Assembly (NCBI GenBank): GCA_965223545.1
Contig: OZ245006.1
Coordinates: 2,880,001-2,944,000, forward strand
Length of the DNA stretch: 64,000 nt
Reading direction: 5' to 3'
From: Planctomycetota bacterium
Lineage (GTDB): Bacteria > Planctomycetota > UBA1135 > UBA2386
The translations under genes were made by a program, and so were the position numbers. The notes under the pieces were generated by a model. The model was not told where the DNA came from and did no database searches. It was given only the letters and a program-made list of their open reading frames with translations. Shown here piece by piece: positions 5,761 through 14,893 of the stretch (the stretch's first letter is position 1; each line of letters starts with the position of its first letter).

Positions 5761-8700
5761 TCAGCGCAGGTCGGCCGAGCGGTCGGCCACGGCGTCGAAC
5801 CGGCCGGGCGGCTGCCGCGCGGCCCAGGCCATGGCGCGGAACAGCAGGCGCCGATAGAGCGGGTCGTTGTAGGTCCACGTGGCCTGACCGATCGCCAAGC
5901 CCACGACCCGAGCGTCCCCGGCGGCGTGCGTCCACAGAGCGGGGTGCTCGCTGCCGTCCTCCGCACGCGCCATCGCCAAGATCTCGACGCCGGCTCGGTC
6001 GCCGCGCAGCGGGAGGAGCTGGTCGAGGAACTCGACCCCCTCGAGCTCCAGCCCCGCCAGGATCGGATGCTCCGCCGCCGCGGCCTCGACGCGCAGGGTC
6101 ACGGTCTGCGACGTCCGCGGCAGCTCGACTTCGGGGTCCATGCTCAGGCCGACGTACGAGGCGACGGCGTCGCCGCGCAGCGCGGCGTTGACGAAGACGA
6201 GGCCCTTGCCCGCGTCGCGAATCTGCGCCAAGCCCTTCCACGCTCGCTCGGAGATCAACACTCCATCGCGATAGCAGACGGCGAGGTCGACCCCCTTGGC
6301 GCGAAAGATGTCCCAGTTGGCGTTGGGCACCACGACCTTGGTGTCCGGCGCTCCGCCGAGCAGAGTCTGCCACGCCTTCTGCCAGGTGAAGAATTCGTAC
6401 AGCCCTCCACCGCTGTCGGCCGAGGCGTCACCGAGCAGCAACAGCCGCAGCGCCGCCCGCCCGCTCTCCGAACTTGCGGGGCGCAGGCGCGCGGCCAGCT
6501 CTTCGGCGTCGCGAGCCGGGGGCCAACCGGGCCGATTCTCCGGCAGACGGCCAAAGGCCACCGGATCGAGCATCAAGTGATCCAACAGCTGCGCCATCCC
6601 GGTCTCGCCGAGGCGAGCGGCGAGACCGTCGGGCATCGTGGACATGGCGGTCGGCGTGAGCGACTCGATCGCCGCGGCGTCGATCTGGTGGGTCACACCG
6701 GCCGCGTCGGTCACCGCAACCTGCTCTCCCGCACGGGTGAGGAACCCCACGCGCTCGTTGCCGTCGGCCAGCTTCACTTCGTGCGTCACGTAGTCCGGAT
6801 TGATCGCCGCGCTCGGCTCGCGGATGTCGCGGATGACCGACGCGCGGTCGCGGTGTACCAGGTTGTCGAGGTTGGGCCCGCCGGGGTTGCCGACGCCGCG
6901 GTGCAAGTGGCACGCCGAGCATTGCGACAGAAACAGATCGCGGCCCGACACGAAGCCGCCGGCGACCGGCTCGTGCTCGACCGGTGGCGCGGCGGGCGGC
7001 CGCGCGCCCGCGCTCACCCAGGGGAGTAGCAGACGCTCGATGCCGACGGGGTCGCGCCAAGGCGCGTCTCCCACTCTCAGCGTCACGCGCCCGGTGGGCA
7101 ACGACGCGCTGCCGGTGGGCATGACGAGCTCGAGCGAGACCGGCGGCCGATCGGCTGCCGCCGCGATGCGCACCTCCCCCATTGCCGCGATCTCGCGACC
7201 GTCCACGCGAGCGCTGCTCCCCGGCGGCGCCTCGATCCGCAGCACGCAGTCCCCGGCGGGCAGGTCCACCTGGGTCTTCATCGTCAGGCGGCCGGGCTCG
7301 CGACAACGCGCCCAAAACGCCTCGTGCGCGGCGCTCCCCCGCGTCAAGACGTGGCTGGCACCGAGGTCGGTGTGCGGCAACCACACGGACTGCGCCGCGG
7401 CCTCGCCCTGCCAATGCGCGACCACTCCCGTCAGGGTGTAGTCGAGCTCGATCGACTGACCGACTGCGGCGGCGCCGTCGACGTCCGGCACCGGCAAGCG
7501 CAGGGCGAACCAGTTCCACGCGTGGGCCGCCGGCGTCGACGGAGTGCGCGCGAGATAGCTCGGGTGCGGATCGGTCCGCACCACCACCGTCCGGCCCTCG
7601 TCGGCGAGGGACACGCCTTTGACCGGCAGCCGGAACCTGCGGTCGCCGCCCTCTTCTTGGCGCGCCTGATAGCCGGGCTTCTTCGTCTCGAAGCGATCCC
7701 CGGCGCGCACGGCATCGCCGAAGGTCAGCTCCACCGCGGACAGATCGCCGAACGCTTCCGCCGGCAACGGCCGATCGAACGCCACGCGCACCTCGTCCTC
7801 CGCCGCGGCCCAGGCGATCACCGGCTGCGGCCGGTCCCTCCCCGTGTACCGCACCTTGAACAGCGCGCCCACGCCCTGCGGACCACTCCCCCAATCCGGG
7901 TCGCCGCCATGCCCGGCGACGACCAGGCCGTTGTCCGGCGTCAGGCACTGATCGACGATCAGGGTGTCCGCGACCGCCCAAGTGACGTTGCGCGCGACGT
8001 AGCCTTCGGGGGTCTTGGCCACCGGCGTGCGGAACAACCGGCCGCGGGAGAAGCCCGCCACCAAGGCATCGCCCCGCCACTCGTCCGGGCCGAAGCCGGC
8101 GCCACCGGCACTCCCCTCGTTGAACACCAACCCACACGTGCACTGGTGCTGAGGGCCGTAGTCGTAGAGCGACGCCGCGTCGTGGGCGTCGGGCAAGAAG
8201 CGCGGATGCCGCGGCGGGAAGCCGTAGTGCCGCCCGCGCTGGATGTGCAGCAGCTCGTCGAACGGATTGCCGTTCTTCAGCCACGTCGACCCCTCCTGGT
8301 CGGTGGCGAACAGGTCGCCGGCCGCGTTCAGCGCCAGCCCGACCGAGAACCGCACGCCGGTGCTGAGCTTCTCGCTGCGCCACCGCCCATCGGGGTTTTC
8401 TGGGTCGGGGCGCGCCACGTGGATCGCGCCGCGCACCGAGGCAGGGTCGTAGTGCGCGCGCCCGCCGCGACGCAGGTAGGGGTTGCTGAAGTCCGTCGTG
8501 CCGACCCCGTAGTAGATGCTGCCGTCCGGGGCGAACACCGCGCCGAACGCGTCGGTGCCCCCGCCCGAATTCCAGGGCTTCTCCCACCCGTCGGCGATCA
8601 CCACCTCGCGGTCGGCAACGTCGTCGCCATCGACGTCGAGCCACAGCGCCACCTTGCCGACGCCGGCGATCAGCACGCCATCACCGAGCGCGAAGCCCGG

Positions 8701-9069
8701 CGGCGTGACGTCGAGCCCGACCGGATGCTTGACCGGCTCGCGCAAGAACTCGCGCGCGTCGTCTTCCAAACCGTCGCCGTCGGTATCGCGCAGCAAGTAG
8801 ACGCGGCCGTTGTAGCCCATCGCCACCAGCGTGCCGTCGGCGCGATAGCGCACGTTGTTGACGTTCGGCAGCTCGACGGGGATGCGCTGCGCCTCGAAGC
8901 CGGGCACCAAGAACTCGATGGGCGCGTCGGCGTTTGCGCCGGGGTGGCGGGGTACGAGGTGCGCGACCTCGTAGGGCCAGGGTTGTTGCTGCTCGCCGCA
9001 TGCGGCGAAGAGCAGTGGTAGACCGCTCAAGAGAGTCCGAGCGGCGAGTGCTCGAGTCCTCACCGACAT
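5761..9069 (-). CDS. PVC-type heme-c binding lipoprotein: sorbosone-dehydrogenase-like propeller + cytochrome c + ThuA-like domain
   Basis: Lipobox LFAAC; DTDGDG repeats and propeller; CSACH followed by GPNL..IREPSAAINPDY..STMPDGL; C-terminal HPIL..HPALW..IGQ..W ThuA-like segment. Start uncertain (9069 chosen). Confidence 0.8.
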   Translation of the reverse strand: MSVRTRALAARTLLSGLPLLFAACGEQQQPWPYEVAHLVPRHPGANADAPIEFLVPGFEAQRIPVELPNVNNVRYRADGTLVAMGYNGRVYLLRDTDGDGLEDDAREFLREPVKHPVGLDVTPPGFALGDGVLIAGVGKVALWLDVDGDDVADREVVIADGWEKPWNSGGGTDAFGAVFAPDGSIYYGVGTTDFSNPYLRRGGRAHYDPASVRGAIHVARPDPENPDGRWRSEKLSTGVRFSVGLALNAAGDLFATDQEGSTWLKNGNPFDELLHIQRGRHYGFPPRHPRFLPDAHDAASLYDYGPQHQCTCGLVFNEGSAGGAGFGPDEWRGDALVAGFSRGRLFRTPVAKTPEGYVARNVTWAVADTLIVDQCLTPDNGLVVAGHGGDPDWGSGPQGVGALFKVRYTGRDRPQPVIAWAAAEDEVRVAFDRPLPAEAFGDLSAVELTFGDAVRAGDRFETKKPGYQARQEEGGDRRFRLPVKGVSLADEGRTVVVRTDPHPSYLARTPSTPAAHAWNWFALRLPVPDVDGAAAVGQSIELDYTLTGVVAHWQGEAAAQSVWLPHTDLGASHVLTRGSAAHEAFWARCREPGRLTMKTQVDLPAGDCVLRIEAPPGSSARVDGREIAAMGEVRIAAAADRPPVSLELVMPTGSASLPTGRVTLRVGDAPWRDPVGIERLLLPWVSAGARPPAAPPVEHEPVAGGFVSGRDLFLSQCSACHLHRGVGNPGGPNLDNLVHRDRASVIRDIREPSAAINPDYVTHEVKLADGNERVGFLTRAGEQVAVTDAAGVTHQIDAAAIESLTPTAMSTMPDGLAARLGETGMAQLLDHLMLDPVAFGRLPENRPGWPPARDAEELAARLRPASSESGRAALRLLLLGDASADSGGGLYEFFTWQKAWQTLLGGAPDTKVVVPNANWDIFRAKGVDLAVCYRDGVLISERAWKGLAQIRDAGKGLVFVNAALRGDAVASYVGLSMDPEVELPRTSQTVTLRVEAAAAEHPILAGLELEGVEFLDQLLPLRGDRAGVEILAMARAEDGSEHPALWTHAAGDARVVGLAIGQATWTYNDPLYRRLLFRAMAWAARQPPGRFDAVADRSADLR

Positions 9070-9252
9070 TTGTTTCCCACGGTTCTCAGCCCTGCGTGAC
9101 ATTTCGTTTCGGTGGTGTCCAAGAGTCAATCGACCTTTCGGCGCAGATCTTACGGCGGCAGACGCACCCGTCTGTACCGTCCATGATGCCGGCGTTGTGC
9201 CGGGGGGCGATGGTCGCGTCCGAGTCGTCAGCATCGCCGCGACCGAGACCGG

Positions 9253-9657
9253 TCAGTAGTCCCCGCGAAGCACGAGTCTCGATCGCGCCGCCAACTCCTT
9301 CTCAATCGCCATTTTGCGACTCTTGGTGAGCGCTGGCTCGATCCCATCACCCGGGTGCGGCCACCCACCGATCTCAACGTGTCGCTCGTAGGTCACGTCG
9401 TCGCGAACGGCCGTCAGCCCAGCATCGCGCACGTCGCGGACCGAGAGTGCTGCCCAGCCCTTCAAACTGGCGACGCGACCGGGTGAAACATACTCTTCGG
9501 CGATCGATTCGATCTCTCTCGGGCCGATTCCATCCGTCTGACATGCAGACGTGAACCCGTCGAACGCACGACTCCTAACGACACGTCTCTCCTTGCCGTA
9601 CGCCTTCTTCGAGTAAATGAAGTTCGCAATCTCCGAGTCTGGCTTCAGGACGCACAT
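9253..9657 (-). CDS. Hypothetical protein, putative ADP-ribosyltransferase-like toxin
   Basis: 134 aa with RAF..FTS..G and ERHVEIGGWP pattern; last gene of a coupled three-gene operon. Start could be 9657 or 9711. Confidence 0.45.
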   Translation of the reverse strand: MCVLKPDSEIANFIYSKKAYGKERRVVRSRAFDGFTSACQTDGIGPREIESIAEEYVSPGRVASLKGWAALSVRDVRDAGLTAVRDDVTYERHVEIGGWPHPGDGIEPALTKSRKMAIEKELAARSRLVLRGDY

Positions 9658-10148
9658 GGCCGACGTCGCGATGCGAATCGGACGAGGTTGACCTGAAGTT
9701 CGGGCGGCCACTCGCCCCCGAACCTAACCGATCCGTTCTGTCTCGAACACGCGAAGCGGCAGGCGTAACTGACGCCACCTCCCTCGTTGAGGCTGACCTC
9801 GAACGTCCATTCGGAGTCATCGAACCACTCCATACGGATATCGCCGTCGGTGTCGGCAAACACATCAGGCTCCGGGAAACCAGGGGGAATCGCTTCAACG
9901 AACTTCCTGGCCAGCGCCACAGTCTCAGTGCTCACCGCGGGCGAGCCCCGCCCGTCCCAATTCTCAGTCGACGCCTCGAGAGCGACACGATCCAACTCGG
10001 CCAGCGCTTCGAGGTTGGATTTCGCGCTGGAATAGGAACTACCGCCAGACTGGTCGAACCCGCATTCTACCTTGGAGGCGGTCGCGCTCGGTGCGAGCGC
10101 GAAGAACAATCCAGTGGCCAAGGGCGCGCGATTCAGGACCCGACTCAT
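9645..10148 (-). CDS. Conserved hypothetical WDG-motif protein, putative antitoxin
   Basis: NWDGRGSPAVS..A..FVEAIP...PEPDVFADTDGDIRMEW motif; ATGA overlap with the upstream gene. Confidence 0.6.
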   Translation of the reverse strand: MSRVLNRAPLATGLFFALAPSATASKVECGFDQSGGSSYSSAKSNLEALAELDRVALEASTENWDGRGSPAVSTETVALARKFVEAIPPGFPEPDVFADTDGDIRMEWFDDSEWTFEVSLNEGGGVSYACRFACSRQNGSVRFGGEWPPELQVNLVRFASRRRPCAS

Positions 10149-10876
10149 TCGTATCTCTCGATCACCTTATCGGTCAGCGTGCTAAAGAAGACAGAGTTCT
10201 TCAGCTCGCGCAGTTCACCGAGAACAGGAAGCAGGCTCTCTTCCTCGGACTTGAACGACCCCGCCTCGAAGGCATCGATGTCCAAACGAACGGCGAACCC
10301 TCCGTCAGCCGGGAGCATGGCCTGGGTCACGAAAACCGCGCGATGCTCCGTCACTCGATGTAGCGTCCGAAGCTCATACTGCATCACATCCGACGGAACG
10401 CCATCGGGTCCGCGCAGGGGCGCTTCGAAGATTTCGTCGAGACTGAACTCGCCGCGCTTGAACGTCATGTGGTTGATGTAGCGCACAGCAACGCGCGAGA
10501 CGTTGCCAATCGGACCGAGCTCGTCGACGTAGGCCGACCAACCCCTCATGGCGTTACCGACAACGTGTTCCCAATCTGTGTAGGGCTTCAGCCTGCTGAA
10601 CGTGAAGCCGTTGATGCGAAATTGCACGACTTCGCTCTCTTGCCGGAAGTGAAACCCGACGAGCGCGTGGTCCACCTCTCCTGGGTCGGACTGCACGCGA
10701 GATCGAAACCTCGCCACGAAGTCCTGCTGAACCTCGACGATGGGGAACTCGCGTGCGCCGACCGAGTCATGGAGCCGGTCCTTATCGTCAACCGAGATCG
10801 ACACGGAATCTGCTAGCCTCAGGTCGATCACAGCTTCCGTGATCGGAGCGTTCTTCAGCTTGCGCTGACTACCCAT
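10145..10876 (-). CDS. TIGR04255-family protein
   Basis: LKNAPITEAVIDLR, VVQFRINGFTFSRLKPYTDWE, SRVAVRYIN, LDID, LRELKNSVFFSTLT match the family pattern as recalled. Confidence 0.85.
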   Translation of the reverse strand: MGSQRKLKNAPITEAVIDLRLADSVSISVDDKDRLHDSVGAREFPIVEVQQDFVARFRSRVQSDPGEVDHALVGFHFRQESEVVQFRINGFTFSRLKPYTDWEHVVGNAMRGWSAYVDELGPIGNVSRVAVRYINHMTFKRGEFSLDEIFEAPLRGPDGVPSDVMQYELRTLHRVTEHRAVFVTQAMLPADGGFAVRLDIDAFEAGSFKSEEESLLPVLGELRELKNSVFFSTLTDKVIERYE

Positions 10877-11282
10877 TCGATGAGCCCGCGGGTTCCATGG
10901 CCGCAACTCTAGGATTGCAGAGTCTTCCCCCACACCAGCACTCCCAAGTTTCTCCAGGCTGTCTCGTCAAGAGTGGCGCGAACATGCGGCCATGGCGTGA
11001 AGGCGGGTTCGTCCTCCGCCAACGTAGTGGCACACCGAGCCTCGGTGGTCACATGCGAGAGGCCTTGGCTCACCCGTTCACCTCATCGCTCCAAAGTTCC
11101 CGATCGCGCTAGCAGTGGTGTGAATCAGGAATCTGCGGCATTCTCCGAGGCCATCCGCGGCCATCGCGGCGTTGCTGCGTTCCTGCGTCCTCGACGTATC
11201 CACCGATATGCCTGCGGCGCAGCGCGTACTCGCGCCGCGACCCGACGCGCAAGTCGCGCCGACGGCCGCTTCGGGACGAAGT

Positions 11283-11308
11283 GCCGTAAACCCGTGAGGG
11301 TTTACGGC
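11283..11308. terminator. Perfect 11-bp hairpin just 3' of tRNA-Asp (terminator or processing signal)
   Basis: GCCGTAAACCC-GTGA-GGGTTTACGGC, 7 nt beyond the tRNA CCA end. Confidence 0.6.
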
Positions 11309-11315
11309 CTTCGAA

Positions 11316-11392
<77 letters not shown>

Positions 11393-13963: not shown

Positions 13964-14893
13964 ATGAGCTCGCTCTACGCGATCCACAAGGTGCGCGCGT
14001 TCTTGCGCGGCACGCTCGGCATCGCCGCGATCGTGTTCGGCGTCCTCATCAAGCAGCCCGTCGTCACTTTTGTCGTCGTCGCCTACGGCACGCTCGTGGC
14101 GGCTTCGGCCTATACACGACTGATCCGCATCTACGCGCAGGAGCAGCGCAGCCCGGACTTGTTCCGCCAGGCGCACGAGAGCTTCGCGCGGGCCAGCCTG
14201 CCGCGGCAGGTGTTCTGGTTGTTGTTCGCCGTCGCCGAAGCCGATGGCCGGCCCGAGAACGACGAGCGCGAGCTGGTCCGCAAGTTCCTGCTCGAGCGCT
14301 TCGTCGACCCGATCACCACGCATGACCTGCGCACCTGGGAGGCGCAGCGCATTCCGCCGGAACAAGTGGGAGCCCTGGCGATGCAAGTGCGCCGCGTGCT
14401 GCTGCCCGCCGAGTGCGAGACCATCTTCTACTGGGCTTGTTTGGTGGCGTTCGCCGACGGCACCTTCCGTCCGCTCGAGCACGAGGCTCTGCAGGACGTG
14501 TCCAAGGGTCTCGGGCTCGACCCCCAACAGGCGCGCGCGGTGTTCCACCACGCCAAGGCGCGAGTGCTCGGCGGCGGCGACCCCAGCGGCACGCGCACGT
14601 GGGGCCGGGCCAACAGCAACGGCTGGCAGCACGGTCCGCGCGGGGCGCACTACGGCGGCCAGCGCCACGACCGCGCGGGGCAGGGTTCCCGACGCGCCCC
14701 GACCCGGGTGCAGGCGTTGGCGATGCTCGGTCTCGAGGGCGACCCCTCCGACGACGACATCCGCAAGCGCCACCGCGAGCTGGTCAAGCGCTATCACCCC
14801 GACGCGCACGCGCACCTCGGCGAGGTCGCGGCGGCCGAGGCCGCCAAGCGCTTCCGCGAGGTGCAGAAGGCCTACGAGTATCTCGTGCCCTGA
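13964..14893 (+). CDS. DjlA-like co-chaperone (TM + TerB-like + C-terminal J domain)
   Basis: VAEADG and VAFADG TerB-type motifs; C-terminal LGL...KRHRELVKRYHPD...FREVQKAYEYL J domain with HPD. Confidence 0.85.
   Translation: MSSLYAIHKVRAFLRGTLGIAAIVFGVLIKQPVVTFVVVAYGTLVAASAYTRLIRIYAQEQRSPDLFRQAHESFARASLPRQVFWLLFAVAEADGRPENDERELVRKFLLERFVDPITTHDLRTWEAQRIPPEQVGALAMQVRRVLLPAECETIFYWACLVAFADGTFRPLEHEALQDVSKGLGLDPQQARAVFHHAKARVLGGGDPSGTRTWGRANSNGWQHGPRGAHYGGQRHDRAGQGSRRAPTRVQALAMLGLEGDPSDDDIRKRHRELVKRYHPDAHAHLGEVAAAEAAKRFREVQKAYEYLVP

Follow-up and report, generated by a model that had tools for sequence, protein, structure and literature searches.

PDC-M32 is a two-gene phage defence candidate of PADLOC-DB v2, one of 145 candidates that its source describes as untested and as searchable in PADLOC (10.1101/2024.01.29.577857), and in the literature searched it appears only as a table entry. 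The same part of that source presents HEC-07 as a validated single-protein defence, in which an N-terminal domain resembling S-adenosylmethionine decarboxylase (AdoMetDC; compared there with 3C6K) stands before RelE (10.1101/2024.01.29.577857). For Escherichia coli, the accessible part of the DefensePredictor report lists DS-42 (PRO1), which consists of three tightly packed genes for proteins of 238 and 190 amino acids (aa) and a metallo-beta-lactamase (MBL) hydrolase, is entered as defensive=1 and replicated=1, and has its MBL annotated with LmuA and Avs1A (PMC13092281). TIGR04255, in turn, is a curated protein family to which no function is assigned and which is named in no paper found in the literature searched. 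The present study concerns a three-gene cassette headed by a TIGR04255 protein and located in a 64,000-nucleotide (nt) stretch of contig OZ245006.1 of a Planctomycetota bacterium; this whole stretch is referred to as the window.

We read the cassette as a mobile toxin-based conflict module, serving phage defence or addiction and not housekeeping, and put the probability of this reading at roughly 0.55. The features on which the description is based are as follows.

10145..10876, minus strand: gene 1, TIGR04255 family protein of 243 aa (P0002), head of the cassette, assigned with NCBIfam
9645..10148, minus strand: gene 2, NWDG-motif protein of 167 aa (P0003), recognised from homologues and alignment A6
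9253..9657, minus strand: gene 3, protein of 134 aa (P0001) with a predicted ADP-ribosyltransferase (ART)-type fold, from a predicted model
11316..11392, minus strand: tRNA-Asp (GTC), found with ARAGORN
9050..11300, no strand: stretch of low guanine-plus-cytosine (GC) content (0.58-0.66), comprising the cassette together with the 440-nt spacer upstream of it, from the composition profile

Gene 1 extends from an ATG at 10876 to a stop codon at 10147-10145, gene 2 from an ATG at 10148-10146 to a stop at 9647-9645, and gene 3 from an ATG at 9657-9655 to a stop at 9255-9253; genes 1 and 2 overlap by 4 nt (ATGA at 10148-10145) and genes 2 and 3 by 13 nt (9645-9657). For gene 3 the ATG at 9657 is favoured over an upstream GTG at 9711, because family alignments start at residues 2-12 of the 134-aa product. 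A preliminary description, made from the letters of the window, had reported three coupled minus-strand genes with an ATGA at 10148-10145 and an overlap of about 13 nt at 9645-9657, which is exact, and a cassette visibly richer in AT than its flanks, which is equally borne out by a GC content of 0.58-0.62 over 9350-11150 (300-nt composition windows) versus about 0.70-0.77 for the majority of such windows in the flanks, outside about 8750 and 11450. A sigma-70-type promoter and a minus-strand terminator were looked for in the window cassette and neither was found.

The order of the three genes is not due to chance, because homologues of all three products keep the same order elsewhere. In a phylum sample of 400 other Planctomycetota genomes, gene-2 relatives were detected in 17, and all nine loci read from this search showed the succession of TIGR04255-like gene, NWDG protein and gene-3 relative. 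Across bacteria, a six-sequence gene-1 alignment scanned against one genome per species yielded 335 relatives, of which the best 80 were examined; in this neighbourhood survey, made with profiles derived from the phylum sample, an NWDG protein lay directly downstream in 77 of the 80 and a member of the gene-3 family in 75, which upholds the co-occurrence of the trio proposed in the preliminary description, and where at least 1000 nt of downstream sequence was present both families were found in 74 of 76 loci. The 4-nt overlap of genes 1 and 2 recurs in 66 of 77 related loci. According to record titles, the best 80 loci span at least 17 named phylum-level groups (Rokubacteria/Methylomirabilis, Binatia, Acidobacteriota, Chloroflexota, Gemmatimonadota, Verrucomicrobiota, Planctomycetota, Gamma- and Betaproteobacteria, Delta-type lineages, Nitrospirota, Dadabacteria, Trueperaceae, Paceibacterota, Cloacimonadota, Neomarinimicrobiota, Chlorobiales and Deferribacteres), and they describe the gene-1 subfamily of the window, not TIGR04255 overall.

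The wider family was followed within the phylum sample, where TIGR04255 occurs in 71 of the 400 genomes with 88 matches. A census of 87 TIGR04255 loci was compiled from the window and 86 of these matches, leaving out a partial match in genome G199 and a sub-cut-off match in genome G119; the next two same-strand open reading frames (ORFs) were called by script and grouped into BLASTP clusters at E <= 1e-4. The NWDG family is second in 31 of the 87 loci, with the gene-3 family third in 26 of these 31, and the following pairs were found behind TIGR04255.

NWDG protein and ART-like protein: 26 loci
Xre-type helix-turn-helix (HTH) protein and a protein of about 260 aa with 'WRQGDC...TQTCD': 11 loci
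The same Xre-type HTH family and a third ORF that is short, masked or ungrouped: 3 loci
The same Xre-type HTH family and an AAA_21 ATPase: 1 locus
Small protein and 'QGDIF...TQDCD' protein: 8 loci
Small protein and PIN: 5 loci
Small protein and PemK/MazF: 1 locus
Protein of about 145 aa and DUF7689: 3 loci
Protein of about 240 aa and MBL hydrolase: 3 loci by cluster (2 over the Pfam Lactamase_B cut-off)

The census also holds several singleton pairs, and in four loci of one family a dihydroorotate dehydrogenase follows after a gap, so that TIGR04255 probably stands alone there. The family is here the constant first gene of modular three-gene cassettes, the last genes of which include textbook toxins (PIN, MazF), an MBL hydrolase of the type entered as defensive for E. 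coli, and a so far undescribed ART-fold family of about 130 residues. The layout of toxin, partner and accessory gene, as it had been suggested in the preliminary description, agrees with the position of TIGR04255 genes before PIN and PemK/MazF. When the module labels were placed on a gene-1 tree of 84 proteins (quick maximum-likelihood search, midpoint root, related rows sharing labels), 26 changes were counted versus 53.7 for shuffled labels, with none of 200 shuffles as low, and the label of NWDG plus ART required at least three origins across well-supported branches. This clustering, together with the repeated origins, indicates that gene 1 mostly stays with its pair, but that pairs have been swapped.

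The combination of Xre-HTH and WRQGDC proteins is a second large TIGR04255 cassette type. Its middle protein carries the motif 'RRLSGLTWEQLA..FGVSRRSVHFWASGK', and the third protein of about 260 aa shows 'WRQGDCV.GE' and 'TQTCD' (loci L014, L015, L019, L021, L022, L024, L025, L027, L036, L047 and L058), with related 'QGDIF...TQDCD' proteins in L028, L032, L034, L038, L050, L053, L061 and L073. For the WRQGDC third protein there was no match in Pfam or PADLOC, and it may represent an effector not described so far.

A comparable modularity is seen in loci of the PDC-M32 kind. The PDC-M32A model was matched in 13 of the 400 other genomes of the phylum sample, three loci holding a full-length protein, three the head only, and the remaining matches being NWDG-only. 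The gene after the full-length protein matches the gene-3 profile in two of the three full-length loci (E 1.4e-12 and 2.4e-11); in the other one the match is confined to a 64-aa ORF (E 6e-6). Without NWDG, the 255-aa head of PDC-M32A was found in L189, L190 and L191 (genomes G149, G143 and G361), fused to another tail that ends in '...LP.DL.DN.DHY.YGTPK' ('...DHYLYG...'); by eye, the next ORF is PIN-like ('MK.VFAD..YW.A...'). Since it also occurs with another tail before a PIN-like gene, the PDC-M32A head is modular in the manner of TIGR04255. It follows from the PDC-M32 loci that the NWDG+ART pair travels with two heads, each of which also serves PIN toxins, and this pattern is the strongest comparative argument for a head that acts as regulator or sensor, a middle protein that is the toxin-specific partner and a last protein that is the effector. 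The idea that PDC-M32A might be a fusion of genes 1 and 2 was dropped, as the alignment of its head with TIGR04255 in hhalign had a probability of 1%. A tblastn search with a PDC-M32B-like gene 3 (L142) gave no match in plasmids or phages.

Gene 3 matched no Pfam or NCBIfam family. Its own family comprised 37 proteins at E <= 0.001, the query included (HMMER, 1.84 billion representatives); three Pfam matches of 34 gene-3 relatives were all at chance level, a search of PDB sequences with the gene-3 profile returned nothing meaningful, and the ESM Atlas returned 'hypothetical protein' clusters only. Ser37, His93 and Trp99 are invariant in alignment A1 (34 gene-3 sequences), from which a model was predicted with a pLDDT (predicted local distance difference test) of 96.5 and a predicted template modelling score (pTM) of 0.88; its elements follow each other as strand, helix, strand, helix, strand, helix, strand, strand, helix, strand. 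With VIA-align, the best rows were 9ld3 with bound ADP-ribose (Z 6.1), mouse Tpt1 (5.4) and AvrPphF ORF2 (5.4), followed by Tse2 (5.0), CopC (5.0) and Tne2 (4.9), and lower rows held BC2332, Agrobacterium 6b, VPA0770, TreX, CC0527, Scabin, DarT (4 entries), PltA, Arr, Xre-RES, pertussis toxin, SPN, RhsP2, TreTu, diphtheria toxin, SidE/SdeA/SdeC, LT, pierisin, NarE and TccC3. Going by their titles, ART, NADase, Tpt1, DarT, Arr or RES entries make up at least 28 of the best 50 rows, and Tse2, 6b, AvrPphF ORF2, CC0527, BC2332 and the Rhs toxins we take to be ART-like as well. Over the ART-fold structures Z ranged from 6.1 to 2.4, with 83-99 residues aligned and an identity of 4-13%. Because each Z is below 8, a fold-level likeness to ARTs is claimed here and not membership.

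Among 134 distinct members of the gene-3 family the conserved polar residues are an Arg of strand 1 (93%), Ser37 (98%) and His93 (99%), joined by Trp99 (85%) and Pro100 (81%). In the secondary structure of the model, Ser37 opens strand 2 and His93 opens the fifth strand; judged by this order of elements and not by residue-level superposition, the family Arg, Ser and His may occupy the places of the R-S-E or H-Y-E residues of ARTs. The window protein keeps Ser37 and His93 and has Asn12 at the position of the strand-1 Arg. The preliminary description had called gene 3 an ART-like toxin on the strength of the pattern 'RAF..S..RHVEIGGW'; of this, the likeness stands at the level of the predicted fold (Z up to 6.1), whereas the pattern contains no canonical triad.

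Gene 2 consists of an N-terminal tail (residues ~1-55) and a domain with the motif NWDG...DGxIxxEW. It matched no Pfam or NCBIfam family, nor was an HTH, ribbon-helix-helix (RHH) or AbrB domain found in it with Pfam; the sequence search of the PDB gave nothing meaningful and that of the ESM Atlas 'hypothetical protein' clusters only. In a word-seeded search, genes 2 and 3 each had one close relative (63-64% identity), the longest contig listed for both being 2755 nt. Over the 65 sequences of alignment A6 the domain consensus reads NWDG(Y)GA...P.PE...PDGEI.FEW, and the tail is variable save for the motif G-[VF]-S-[DE]-x-A, which is kept in at least 70% of the sequences and is represented by A-P-S-A-T-A in the window. 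The tail of the window protein resembles a signal peptide; it is nevertheless read as a peptide handle and not as an export signal, because most relatives have no hydrophobic core there. Gene 2 is likely the partner or neutraliser of gene 3.

The assignment of gene 1 to TIGR04255, already made in the preliminary description, is secure (E 4.3e-28, 98.8 bits at a cut-off of 30, model positions 1-250 of 252), and gene 1 is the sole copy of the family in the 8.1-Mb genome of the window. Its structure was predicted from alignment A5, 79 sequences (the window, 57 of 75 cross-phylum loci and 21 phylum loci) hand-picked to keep out over-extended ORFs. The model (pLDDT 93, pTM 0.88) is a two-lobed sheet that bears helices on one face, and for it Foldseek gave AdoMetDC/prozyme (E 7.6e-5) and the TATA-binding protein (TBP; E 1e-3) with low TM-scores of 0.27-0.31, and VIA-align gave the McsB kinase domain of arginine-kinase type (Z 7.7), TBP (7.0), taurocyamine kinase (7.0), AdoMetDC (6.8), the N-domain of spermine synthase 3C6K (6.7) and RepDE (6.7). 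The fold is predicted to be TBP/AdoMetDC-like. SecB was absent among the rows listed for this model by either program; the proposal of the preliminary description that gene 1 acts as a chaperone found no evidence in these matches, which are to TBP, AdoMetDC and phosphagen-kinase folds. By sequence nothing meaningful was found in the PDB, and none of 27 gene-1 proteins matched a PADLOC model. A complex prediction of genes 1 and 2 (A5, A6) had ipSAE values of 0.02 and 0.01 and a mark of 0.32, and carries no weight either way.

Mobility was considered from the carriers of the cassette and from its neighbourhood. With gene 1 as tblastn query, a single phage record was retrieved, Ralstonia phage YO139_2 (P2-like, Peduoviridae, marked UNVERIFIED_ORG), which holds the full trio (gene 2 at E 2.6e-14, gene 3 at E 2.5e-13), as well as a single plasmid, the mobilisable pCRI9333.03 of Crinalium epipsammum (NC_019754.1 26793-25724, L094). 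The latter has an annotated TIGR04255 gene and, behind it with an overlap of 4 nt, two hypothetical genes (182 and 172 aa), neither of them NWDG or ART-like, which makes it yet another module. In IMG/VR, 11 loci contained a gene-1 relative, six of them with both other families and 10 with a gene-3 relative. On four IMG/VR contigs (L203-L206) the gene-3 relative that accompanies TIGR04255, some 600 nt downstream, is a weaker one (E 1e-8 to 6e-5); between them stands a gene that the NWDG profile does not recognise and that may belong to a divergent partner family.

Around 75 complete chromosomal cassettes, 17 of the 123 nearest large ORFs were related to defence or mobility (type I or IIG restriction-modification, Abi/AIPR, AAA_21, integrase, resolvase, IS110/transposase, RadC and HerA). 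The whole trio stands between type I hsdS and hsdM in a Gemmatimonadaceae metagenome-assembled genome (L155, CAZHGS010000002.1), and hsdS also adjoins the trio in L135, L162 and L165. In three further loci (L151, L169 and L171; two records titled Neomarinimicrobiota and one 'bacterium') the trio has a TRAM/tRNA(U5)-methyltransferase gene on one side and an NAD-dependent DNA ligase gene on the other, and the shared site suggests vertical inheritance within that group.

At the site of the window cassette, the 3' end of tRNA-Asp lies 440 nt from the cassette start on the same strand. The tRNA gene and an adjoining DUF6687 gene were kept in all five same-family genomes, and the DNA 3' of the tRNA differed in each of the five. 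In one of them (G119; L182, 1-6201) tRNA-Asp is followed by a stretch of GC 0.53, in a genome with flanks of about 0.7, that carries a phage-integrase fragment and a DDE transposase, and this island points to tRNA-Asp as a recurrent insertion site in the family. Genome-wide, TIGR04255 was not found in four of the five same-family genomes, the fifth (G119) having a sub-cut-off partial match on another contig, and the search for gene-2 relatives gave nothing in any of the five. As the site is kept but the cassette genes were not found in the same-family genomes, the window cassette is considered a small insertion at a variable spot. The integration at a tRNA 3' end that the preliminary description had envisaged is in part supported by this variable 3' side, but a direct repeat of the tRNA end (att-like) was searched for and not found, and no integrase was found inside the low-GC stretch.

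Next to the cassette, an ORF of 1157 aa at 5761-9234 on the minus strand has DUF7133 and ThuA matches; by eye, a signal of lipoprotein type ('LLFAAC') can be made out some 45 codons from its beginning, as can a c-type haem motif (CSACH). Its true start probably lies downstream of 9234, so that about 150 nt would separate it from gene 3. This ThuA-like gene was found within about 6 kb of tRNA-Asp in none of the five same-family genomes. Farther away, at 13964-14893 on the plus strand, a TerB domain and a C-terminal DnaJ (J) domain are combined in one protein (Pfam E 4e-10 and 2e-10).

If the cassette is a conflict module, the role of effector would fall to gene 3, which would probably use NAD+ by means of Ser37, His93 and, in most members, the strand-1 Arg. 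Gene 2 would bind gene 3 and keep the effector inactive through its NWDG domain, and gene 1 would be a common sensor or regulator acting via gene 2, possibly by gripping the tail motif. A trigger such as infection would then set the effector free.

Several observations weigh against this reading. The structural Z values of gene 3 are modest, 6.1 at best and hence under the VIA-align caution line of 8; in the structure search for an ART fold that the preliminary description had suggested, the at least 28 of 50 rows from VIA-align are set against Foldseek results that were empty at E <= 0.001 both in the PDB and in the viral models of BFVD. The canonical ART triads R-S-E or H-Y-E (strands 1, 2 and 5) are not present in the gene-3 family, and the window protein has neither the Arg conserved at 93%, nor the Pro of 'AF.P', nor the Arg of 'SVFR', which is replaced by Gln; because of Asn12 and these other departures from the family, the activity of the window copy may be altered or lost. 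Among 8000 candidates scored, no fused or longer polymorphic-toxin form of gene 3 was found, a point of little weight. The uniformity of the 80 loci is partly a selection effect, because these were picked by the likeness of gene 1 to the window subfamily, and the script ORF calls were naive, taking the first start after a stop. Finally, 106 of the 123 nearest neighbours are unrelated to defence or mobility and mostly of housekeeping type, and the copy in the window is situated outside any defence island.

The same layout would also be expected of a plain three-part addiction module, which stabilises the mobile DNA that carries it and takes no part in phage defence, gene 1 being a transcriptional or post-translational regulator. 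TIGR04255 genes before the classical type II toxins PIN and PemK, the trio on phage and viral contigs, and chromosomal neighbours that are mostly not defence genes accord with it; against it stand a DS-42 layout that is listed as defensive, the kinship of genes 2 and 3 with PDC-M32, a candidate found embedded in defence loci, and several copies inside type I restriction-modification loci. These points on the side of defence do not exclude addiction, and both roles often coincide, but as a complete account we consider addiction without defence unlikely. A role outside conflict, in which gene 3 is a small Tpt1/KptA-like enzyme of RNA or nucleotides, gene 1 binds nucleic acid and gene 2 is an adaptor, could draw on the two best gene-3 rows, both of Tpt1 type (Z 6.1 and 5.4), on the resemblance of gene 1 to DNA/RNA-binding beta-saddles (TBP Z 7.0, RepDE 6.7) and on the three Marinimicrobia-type loci with the trio between tRNA methyltransferase and NAD-dependent DNA ligase genes. 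It appears improbable, given the patchy spread of the pair (26 of 87 TIGR04255 loci, none of five same-family genomes) and a low GC content, phage carriage and third-gene swaps to PIN, MazF and MBL that are unlike a housekeeping enzyme; besides, gene 3 has the size of the NAD lobe only, 134 aa versus chains of 179-206 residues, and is without the other Tpt1 domain.

That the cassette is a weapon of the phage side, by which prophages exclude rival phages or disarm host immunity, would account for its presence in the P2-like phage record and on IMG/VR contigs, and phages do make use of ART-fold enzymes. Most copies are chromosomal, however, 106 of 123 nearest ORFs belong neither to mobile elements nor to defence, no structural match was obtained in BFVD, and superinfection exclusion would in any case overlap with defence; we hold this to be slightly more doubtful than the enzyme of RNA or nucleotides. 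The preliminary description had preferred a toxin-antitoxin-chaperone (TAC) system like CmdTAC, with TIGR04255 in the chaperone or sensor role, taken here as SecB-like and as keeping the antitoxin stable, and for this the ART-like fold of gene 3 and the tail motif of gene 2, as a possible handle for gene 1, can still be adduced. The order in the cassette is head, partner, effector and not toxin, antitoxin, chaperone; gene 1 matches TBP, AdoMetDC and kinase domains, SecB not being among the listed rows, and the match in PADLOC is to PDC-M32A only. The tail of gene 2 is N-terminal, and the chaperone-addiction element of SecB-type TAC systems is C-terminal. Although the tripartite logic does resemble TAC systems, as far as these are covered in the accessible part of the source (PMC11618068), the likeness to CmdTAC is therefore given up and a chaperone-based system is regarded as very improbable.

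The reading as a mobile conflict module can be extended further, albeit tentatively. TIGR04255 might be a general-purpose head of conflict systems, a sensor with the shape of TBP/AdoMetDC that connects to at least eight kinds of partner-plus-toxin pair via a tail handle on the middle protein; gene 3 might represent a new minimal clade of NAD+-using ART toxins with an Arg-Ser-His set, held by NWDG; and DS-42 and PDC-M32 might be only two faces of one large family of tripartite systems, for immunity or addiction, that extends across phyla and is carried by phages. We regard this extended view as possible, though clearly the weaker bet. Should gene 3 turn out to be an active enzyme that uses NAD+, it would rank with the smallest so far known and have an unusual set of Arg, Ser and His, and if TIGR04255 is the sensor, a single family would offer a handle on the switching of many toxin modules. 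At 1.6 kb, self-contained and with a range from Planctomycetota to Proteobacteria and phages, this short cassette is directly testable in laboratory strains.

In comparison with known systems, the cassette departs from the classical type II toxin-antitoxin pair, which has two genes and a DNA-binding antitoxin, in having three genes and a gene 2 in which Pfam shows no such domain. Tpt1/KptA, DarT, RES, Tse2 and Tne2 structures are the best matches to the gene-3 model, and unlike other ART-fold proteins gene 3 is a minimal domain of 134 aa. HEC-07 shares with gene 1 the likeness to 3C6K (Z 6.7), which is a structural analogy only; HEC-07, as portrayed in the accessible part of its source, is a single fused protein, whereas gene 1 of the window is separate and without a PADLOC match (10.1101/2024.01.29.577857). 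In Panacea/PanA, as in TIGR04255, one conserved family is paired with many unrelated toxins, but Panacea, according to the accessible part of its description, is the antitoxin domain itself, while TIGR04255 is a separate third protein before the pair, and the two are not homologous (PMC8832971). With CmdTAC, as far as the accessible part of its source goes, the window model has in common the three parts, an effector of ADP-ribosyltransferase type, predicted for the window at fold level, and control of the neutraliser by a third protein; a link by sequence was not found, the order of the genes and the position of the extra tail differ, gene 1 is not SecB-like among the rows listed and gene 3 has no standard ART triad (PMC11618068).

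DS-42 is close in layout. It resembles, by layout and type of effector, the three census loci in which TIGR04255 is followed by a protein of about 240 aa and an MBL, and differs from the window, as far as the accessible part of the report shows, in an effector that is an MBL-fold hydrolase and not ART-like, and in a middle protein that is not of the NWDG type (PMC13092281). The MBL proteins of the census loci match the PADLOC models of LmuA and Avs1A, with which the MBL of DS-42 is annotated. A tblastn search of phages with one such MBL effector (L076) gave 23 records; neither the organism tally nor the 15 records listed included E. coli.

PDC-M32 is related in sequence. The NWDG domain of gene 2 corresponds to the C-terminal ~110 residues of PDC-M32A, to which the window protein has a weak match (model positions 267-333, E 1.6e-5) and seven of 27 further gene-2 proteins match at E < 1e-3; PDC-M32B is matched weakly by three of 24 gene-3 relatives (L142 at E 3.7e-5, L168 and L095), and window gene 3 had no PADLOC match at E <= 1, PDC-M32B included. 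PDC-M32A has its own fused head of 255 aa, where the window has a separate TIGR04255 gene, and the 375-position model of head plus NWDG is not covered in full length by window gene 2. By sequence comparison, genes 2 and 3 of the window are distant kin of PDC-M32 and not members of it. Because PDC-M32 and DS-42 precede it, the cassette is only partly and not categorically new: what the preliminary description had presented as undescribed gives way where the pair is distant kin of PDC-M32 and the layout is that of DS-42, and stands for the gene-2/gene-3 pair with its TIGR04255 head.

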